Positions 45,634 through 46,701 of a stretch of DNA of 64,000 nt are shown here, piece by piece. The stretch is from NCBI RefSeq assembly GCF_003334815.1, contig NZ_QOWO01000010.1; one strand, 5' to 3'. The translations under genes and the position numbers were made by a program. Position 1 is the first letter of the stretch, and each line of letters starts with the position of its first letter. The stretch is from Escherichia coli (lineage in GTDB: Bacteria; Pseudomonadota; Gammaproteobacteria; Enterobacterales; Enterobacteriaceae). A model generated the notes under the pieces. The model saw nothing but the letters and a program-made list of their open reading frames with translations, was not told the origin of the DNA and made no database searches.

Positions 45634-45651
45634 TAGTACCTGTGAAGTGAA

Positions 45652-45681
45652 AAATGGCGCACATTGTGCGCCATTTTTTTT
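45652..45681. terminator. rho-independent terminator of lpp (possibly bidirectional, shared with ldtE)
   Basis: hairpin aatggcgcac / gtgcgccatt followed by eight T; A-rich on the other side. Confidence 0.85.
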
Positions 45682-45696
45682 GTCTGCCGTTTACCG

Positions 45697-46701
45697 CTAC
45701 TGCGTCACGCGTAACATATTCCCTTGCTCTGGTTCACCATTCTGCGCTGACTCTACTGAAGGCGCATTGCTGGCTGCGGGAGTTGCTCCACTGCTCACCG
45801 AAACCGGATACCCTGCCCGACGATACAACGCTTTATCGACTAACTTCTGATCTACAGCCTTATTGTCTTTAAATTGCGTAAAGCCTGCTGGCAGTGTGTA
45901 TGGCATTGTCTGAACGTTCTGCTGTTCTTCTGCCGATAGTGGTCGATGTACTTCAACATAACGCATCCCGTTAGGCTCCACGGAATATTTCACCGGTTCG
46001 TTGATCACTTTCACCGGCGTTCCCGTCCGCACGCTGGAGAACAAGGCTTTAATATCCGGTGCATTCATGCGAATACACCCTGAACTGACGCGCAAACCGA
46101 CGCTGTCCGGCGCACTGGTACCATGAATGAGGTATTCGCCATTACCATGCGCGAGGCGCAGTGCGTAACGTCCTAGCGGGTTATTTGGTCCGGCAGGAAC
46201 GACTGGCGGTAATTTAATGCCACGCTCCAGCGAACGCTGACGAATGCCTGCCGTAGGCGTCCAGGTTGGGTTAGGGATTTTCTGCCCAACACGCGTTTCC
46301 ATCACCGGCGTTTCCAGCCCCTGCAATCCAATACCTATTGGATAAACCTGCACAATATTTTCTCCCGGCGGATAATAATAAAGGCGCAGCTCTGCAAGGT
46401 TAACGATAATCCCCTGACGCGGTGCATCAGGTAATAACAGTTGTGAAGGAATAGTTATCGTCGTACCAGGTTTTGGCACCGGGGCGATAGTGTTATTGGC
46501 TTCAAGGATCAACATTGCCGCAGTATCAAAACGTCGGGCAATAGCCTGAAGGTTTTTATCCCCTTCTTGCACCGTATACGTTTGATTTTGCCCAACCAGT
46601 CGGCTTCCGGTTGGTGGTAGCGGATAATCAACCGCCCAGGCAGCCTGGATGGCGCTAAAAGCGCCGATAAGCGTGAGTGTAAGCAAAGACGCGCGTTTCA
46701 T
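45697..46701 (-). CDS. ldtE: L,D-transpeptidase
   Basis: 334-aa ORF with signal peptide, LysM-like region and YkuD catalytic motif ([20 protein letters not shown]); recognised as YnhG/LdtE. Confidence 0.92.

Follow-up and report, generated by a model that had tools for sequence, protein, structure and literature searches.

The 63-nt spacer that separates the convergent Escherichia coli genes lpp and ldtE holds a single hairpin, and this hairpin is the canonical, or classical, Rho-independent (intrinsic) terminator of lpp. The overall reading that we consider probable is that of an lpp terminator which is likely also a 3' stabiliser, whose small leak is stopped by Rho, and which most likely ends the transcripts of ldtE as well. 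The lpp terminator, the use of terminators in two directions and leaky convergent termination are each already known and well documented in E. coli; the locus is a neat illustration of very strong selection on one side of a hairpin, on which the neighbouring convergent gene appears to rely. Interference between lpp and ldtE, if real, would tie two cell-envelope functions together. Furthermore, the analysis raises a possible question of strand for the Rfam family RmaA.

Throughout, 'the window' denotes the whole 64-kb stretch of DNA that was analysed, and window coordinates are converted to those of MG1655 by the addition of 1,712,024. From the list of open reading frames in the window, the order of the segment on the E. 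coli chromosome is pykF(+), lpp(+), ldtE(-), sufE(-) and sufS(-), with gene names that agree with the RefSeq and MG1655 annotations. The region is present at 95-100% identity in all 5,426 of the 5,426 complete E. coli genomes. The features discussed below are collected in Table 1.

Table 1. Features of the lpp-ldtE region of E. coli, in window coordinates
Feature	Position	Strand	Evidence
lpp CDS (murein lipoprotein, 78 aa)	45397-45633	+	ORF list, RefSeq annotation, sequence
lpp 3' UTR before the hairpin	45634-45649	+	sequence
A5 tract	45650-45654	+	sequence, folding
G+C-rich core hairpin TGGCGCAC-ATT-GTGCGCCA, 8 bp, 3-nt loop	45655-45673		folding, conservation
T8 run, the U tract of the lpp terminator	45674-45681	+	sequence; conservation
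Mapped lpp mRNA 3' ends	45677-45678	+	Term-seq, Adams et al. 2021, PMC7815308, converted coordinates
Spacer from the T run to the ldtE stop, exactly 15 nt, apparently unconstrained	45682-45696		diversity 0.58 between species; variable within E. coli
Putative read-through stretch, antisense to the 3' end of ldtE, ending at the Rho region (45893)	45682-45893	+	PMC7815308; base composition
ldtE (ynhG) CDS, L,D-transpeptidase, convergent with lpp	45697-46701	-	ORF list, RefSeq/MG1655 annotation

The hairpin and the 3' end of lpp

Two stop codons in tandem close the lpp reading frame, TAA (45631-45633) and, in the same frame, TAG (45634-45636), the second of which is kept across the Enterobacteriaceae with a per-site diversity of 0.03-0.10. 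From the lpp stop to the extended stem there are 16 nt, and to the G+C core 21 nt; in the 82 loci compared in the following section the distance from stop to core is 17-26 nt, and the per-site diversity of 45634-45649 is 0.25. On the opposite side the ldtE stop codon, TAG, occupies 45697-45699 and the stem starts 18 nt past it.

The arms of the hairpin, at 45650-45662 (AAAAATGGCGCAC) and 45666-45678 (GTGCGCCATTTTT), form 13 bp around the loop ATT at 45663-45665, and the core stem, with six G-C pairs among its 8 bp, can form in RNA from both strands. In the lpp RNA the A5 tract (45650-45654) pairs with the first five U of the U tract. Since the hairpin is palindromic and flanked by A5, RNA made from the ldtE side carries an identical stem and then U5-CACUU, in which the complement of A5 is the sole U tract. 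The + strand folds with -19.5 kcal/mol (z -5.8) and the - strand with -18.4 kcal/mol (z -6.35), an equally good fold being found in 0 of 200 shuffles for each. The original prediction described a stem plus eight T, 15 bp from the ldtE stop and A-rich on the opposite flank, and the sequence agrees with that description in every detail.

The 3' end of lpp has been mapped by Term-seq, in which the dominant ends lie at MG1655 1757702 (+) in LB at OD 0.4 and at 1757701 (+) in LB at OD 2.0 (Adams et al. 2021, eLife, PMC7815308, Supplementary file 1). These are classed as the primary lpp 3' end, in a list with at least three lpp entries (Adams et al. 2021, PMC7815308). In the window they place the end of the lpp RNA in the U run, in the sequence ...GCGCCAUUUUU; they show the termination step in the lpp direction, and they bear out the claim, made beforehand, of a very strong lpp terminator.

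We scored the hairpin with the classical d'Aubenton-Carafa discriminant for a hairpin plus U tract, using modern energy parameters, which makes the values approximate. The lpp terminator obtains a forward score of +48.8 with a T-score of 5.48, similar to the +56.6 of the pykF terminator, and the median over the 82 loci, for which a fixed-core definition of the stem was used, is 44 (range 34-55). In the lpp direction the polymerase transcribes the 8-bp G+C core and then U8, upon which the transcript is released, and the mature lpp RNA ends in the U run with its first five U paired to the upstream A5. We take this terminator to be the element described together with the lpp mRNA sequence by Nakamura and Inouye, in about 1979-80: the 322-nt lpp mRNA starts 38 nt before the ATG, which places its 3' end at about 45680, 2-3 nt from the Term-seq ends at 45677/45678. 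The element is the same and nothing in it differs; the classical account is not known to deal with the convergent ldtE.

Conservation across the Enterobacterales

Loci were collected through the Lpp protein, which gave 80 with one genome per species, and more distant Enterobacterales were added; 82 loci entered the terminator comparison, and diversity was computed over 77 distinct sequences. The convergent arrangement of lpp and ldtE is kept in 76 of the 79 full-length Enterobacteriaceae loci and is found also in Photorhabdus, Arsenophonus, Serratia, Fukatsuia and Symbiopectobacterium. In Mangrovibacter and Ca. Erwinia impunctatus ldtE is absent; the hairpin persists in both and sufE converges on it.

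Of the 82 loci, 77 have an identical core hairpin and 78 a T run of 7-9. Per-site diversity is 0.009 in the stem arms and 0.015 in the T run, compared to 0.015 at codon positions 1+2 of lpp and 0.065 at its third positions (synonymous sites), which is to say that over the 82 Enterobacterales loci the conservation of stem and T run is on a par with that of the non-synonymous sites of lpp. The corresponding values are 0.18 for the loop, 0.21 for the A tract, where just the two A nearest the stem are conserved, and 0.58 for the 20 nt after the T run. The 13-bp extended helix has four pairs with compensatory double changes, of which three belong to the core; the changes are seen in different lineages (Mangrovibacter, Photorhabdus, Fukatsuia/Symbiopectobacterium and Serratia symbiotica). 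The helix cells are paired in 97.2% of cases, the observed covariation is reached by 0/500 shuffles, and slid controls give 0-1. By these comparisons, purifying selection acts strongly on the structure of the hairpin and on its U tract alike.

It is possible, and we hold it as a tentative alternative, that this extreme conservation derives mainly from a 3' stem-loop that shields the long-lived lpp mRNA against 3' exonucleases, with termination as a secondary role. The stem sequence itself, beyond its pairing, is what is identical in the 77 loci, and it is more conserved than the synonymous sites of lpp; the mapped 3' end, moreover, lies at the base of the stem as extended by A5:U5, as it would after exonucleolytic trimming. 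The two roles are nevertheless not exclusive, the same hairpin and U tract being those that define an intrinsic terminator, and the conserved run of 7-9 T exceeds what is needed for pairing with A5, which points to termination. We retain termination as the leading role of the element and consider that it is probably also a 3' stabiliser of the lpp mRNA.

The asymmetry of wobble pairs was considered as a test of the strand on which selection acts. Twelve G-U cells fit the lpp RNA and none the reverse RNA; this was judged indecisive because variation is confined to the A tract and A-to-G transitions are in any case the most frequent change.

The sequence adjoining the hairpin is of a different character. 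Positions 45682-45710, comprising the 15-nt spacer and the last codons of ldtE, are hypervariable even inside E. coli, and an 86-nt query over the spacer region finds 1,386 genomes at just 90-95% identity. In the sole divergent genome that was aligned (E166) the hairpin next to this hypervariable spacer is unchanged. The length of the C-terminal tail of LdtE differs between genera.

Insertion sequences were also met at the locus. Three E. coli genomes, BY63 (357-1054 of the retrieved locus L114), BY68 and 600029, carry an IS1 between pykF and lpp, upstream of the latter. In E. coli ECamp52 (NZ_CP196304.1; 1501-3046 of the retrieved locus L121) the hairpin of the lpp terminator is interrupted by an IS4, whose target site of about 13 bp (CGCACATTGTGCG) is duplicated; the insertion splits lpp from the T run and leaves a truncated hairpin on either side. 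One contig of 294 bp assigned to Phyllobacterium myrsinacearum (NZ_PVBT01000035.1) carries lpp with a protein 100% identical to E. coli Lpp, and is probably contamination.

Read-through from lpp and the end of ldtE

A signal sensitive to bicyclomycin (BCM) runs antisense within ldtE. The published data are DirectRNA-seq with and without BCM, with a Rho score that uses 800-nt windows, and they contain a Rho termination region at MG1655 1757917 (+) that is listed as lying antisense to ldtE (Adams et al. 2021, PMC7815308, Supplementary file 2). The reads upstream and downstream of it number 517/13 in the untreated sample and 630/68 with BCM, giving a Rho score of 4.29 (p 1.6e-7; PMC7815308). This region (window 45893) is located about 215 nt beyond the terminator, and the + strand of 45682-45893 is C-rich and G-poor, with a C/G ratio of 1.44 overall and of 1.7-2.3 in 50-nt windows.

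We infer, as the simplest reading, that this antisense signal comes from lpp read-through. A small share of the very heavy lpp traffic, put at a few percent although the leak fraction is not exactly computable because the 800-nt upstream window contains lpp itself, would escape the terminator; the escaped RNA, presumably untranslated, would then run through the C-rich antisense of ldtE until Rho stops it at the distance given above. An unrecognised antisense promoter that takes the place of lpp read-through is a formal alternative, but no promoter-like site was found on the + strand of 45682-45893 from which it could act. The original prediction had raised the possibility of lpp reading through antisense into ldtE, and the published BCM-sensitive Rho region supports it.

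In the direction of ldtE, the reading through U5-CACUU scores +20.1, which predicts a moderate terminator, where the pykF terminator in reverse scores -10.6. The window contains five strong terminator-like hairpins, of which the lpp hairpin alone has a positive reverse score; the other four score from -10 to -56. No other terminator-like site was found on the - strand from the ldtE stop (45697) to lpp, and the spacer in the Enterobacteriaceae offers room for one hairpin. In Serratia sp. DD3 and Sodalis pierantonius, which have a longer spacer (2238-2460 of the retrieved locus L117 and 2238-2741 of L115), the convergent YkuD-family gene has a hairpin and T run of its own, apart from the lpp hairpin. 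It is the combination of the reverse score, the lack of another site and the separate terminators of these long-spacer relatives that makes sharing the likeliest arrangement.

The spacer between sufE and ldtE (46702-46849, - strand) folds strongly, at -49.8 kcal/mol (z -3.1), and within it no clear hairpin-plus-U-tract terminator was found; transcripts of the suf operon may therefore enter ldtE and reach the shared hairpin. The transcripts of ldtE, together with any such read-through from the suf operon, would most likely end near 45645-45650. Termination in this direction would be less efficient than in the direction of lpp and would probably be helped by head-on collision with the dense traffic of lpp polymerases. 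The lpp and ldtE mRNAs would share about 29 complementary nt at their 3' ends. Of the initial proposal that the hairpin ends both convergent transcripts, then, the lpp part stands on the Term-seq ends, and the ldtE part is plausible as a prediction, from the reverse score of the only hairpin available to it.

An A tract upstream of the hairpin also strengthens terminators that work in one direction, and A5 is for that reason no proof of a two-way function. In the sequences compared, selection is demonstrably visible for the lpp direction only, because the reverse T run, which the A tract provides on the - strand, differs in length from species to species (0 to 6 T) and the reverse score (median 18 over the 82 loci, range -17.5 to +31.7), while above zero in 72/82, is below zero in 10/82. 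ldtE appears to make use of an element that is kept for lpp.

A short and weakly conserved reverse U tract, with negative scores in ten loci, also favours a terminator that serves lpp only, the polymerases on ldtE being stopped inside antisense lpp by collision or by Rho, or their RNA being degraded as a duplex with the lpp mRNA. Termination driven by collision is documented for convergent pairs (10.1101/2022.10.23.513370), and no 3' end of ldtE on the - strand is present in the curated Term-seq tables (Adams et al. 2021, PMC7815308). We consider such a one-way arrangement unlikely. The missing end carries little weight and is uninformative, because pykF and sufE are absent from the same tables, and the E. 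coli reverse score is still +20 against -10 to -56 for the four other strong terminators, with a stem that is equally stable on both strands. The supplements of TERMITe and SMRT-Cappable-seq make no mention of lpp or ldtE, and a literature search on termination or antisense transcription at lpp and ldtE (ynhG) returned no paper on the pair, save for a remark on Salmonella that is taken up below. Termination of both genes at the shared hairpin remains our preferred reading.

A regulatory link may be envisaged on top of shared termination, in which heavy lpp traffic would set the output of ldtE by head-on collisions and by Rho-limited antisense RNA across the 3' end of ldtE; as an alternative, a 3' fragment containing the hairpin could be an Hfq-bound regulator in E. 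coli, of the RmaA kind. We regard both as improbable. If true, the regulatory link would couple the supply of Braun lipoprotein inversely to the enzyme that makes 3-3 peptidoglycan cross-links.

RmaA and other known systems

The sRNA RmaA (Hrs6) of Erwinia amylovora, 113 nt long and Hfq-dependent, has been placed in the spacer between sufE and lpp; its published listing gives the sufE strand, with a terminator on the side of lpp (Zeng and Sundin 2014, PMC4070566). It lies in the homologous spacer, beside the lpp 3' end, and has the same hairpin. In the Erwinia locus, which we retrieved through the Lpp protein, ldtE is absent and the sufE-lpp spacer is 116 nt long (Ca. Erwinia impunctatus), so that RmaA as annotated spans essentially the whole spacer; sufE there converges directly on lpp, unlike in E. 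coli. The Rfam model RF02629 matches 45635-45716 (+) of the window with 35.2 bits (E 1.3e-4), its consensus hairpin being identical to that of E. coli.

This match is sub-threshold and driven by the hairpin: 35.2 bits is well under the gathering threshold of 57, the hairpin alone supplies 29.6 bits, and by Rfam's own gathering criterion the E. coli locus is not a member of RF02629. The flank on the ldtE side in E. coli consists of coding sequence and hypervariable spacer, no match at E<=0.01 was obtained in Ca. Erwinia impunctatus and none at the gathering threshold in Mangrovibacter, and the strand in the Rfam model disagrees with the published one (PMC4070566). We therefore judge it highly improbable that the region is the E. 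coli counterpart of RmaA, whether as a 3' fragment of ldtE/suf ending at the hairpin or as a product of the lpp 3' UTR.

The consensus of RF02629 runs collinear to the 3' UTR of lpp, in the sense of that gene and from base 2 of its stop codon (aligned to 45635-45716 of the window, 3238-3353 of the retrieved locus L109 and 493-560 of L102). Either the Rfam strand or the published strand of RmaA may be wrong, or the sRNA may in part be a signal from the lpp 3' UTR. A search of metagenomes with DNA patterns for the Erwinia RmaA locus gave 0 matches with the first pattern and 26 with a looser one, one of these being an lpp locus. The sub-threshold Rfam matches to STnc320, STnc40, sraA and Bp1_162 were rejected as look-alikes of terminators only, and a sub-threshold match to GcvB at 44956-45145 (29.7 bits, gathering 42), over the pykF 3' end and terminator, is probably spurious and driven by that terminator.

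Bidirectional terminators between convergent E. coli genes were reportedly found by Ju et al. 2019 using SEnd-seq. Such terminators and collision-assisted termination at convergent genes of E. coli have since been described together, with the finding that heavy traffic improves the collision-assisted mode (Wang et al. 2022 preprint, 10.1101/2022.10.23.513370). The lpp-ldtE locus resembles these systems in having one hairpin in a short convergent spacer, at which both transcripts would overlap, and the very high traffic of lpp fits as well. It differs in that the authors stress elements unlike canonical intrinsic terminators, whereas the lpp hairpin is a textbook intrinsic terminator in one direction.

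Leaky termination is common at convergent E. coli operons: an overlap, averaging 286 nt, was reported for 276/370 of them (Conway et al. 2014, PMC4161252). The antisense extension of lpp into ldtE, of about 215 nt, is typical of these overlaps; compared with them, the lpp leak makes up a minor part of a very strong transcript, and its sensitivity to BCM is explicit.

A parallel in layout is found in Salmonella Typhimurium, in which a near-identical hairpin follows each of lppA and lppB and ldtE converges on lppB across 65 nt, and for which the authors speculate that ldtE and lppB are inversely expressed (PMC12681736). E. coli has a single copy of lpp where Salmonella Typhimurium has the duplicates lppA and lppB.
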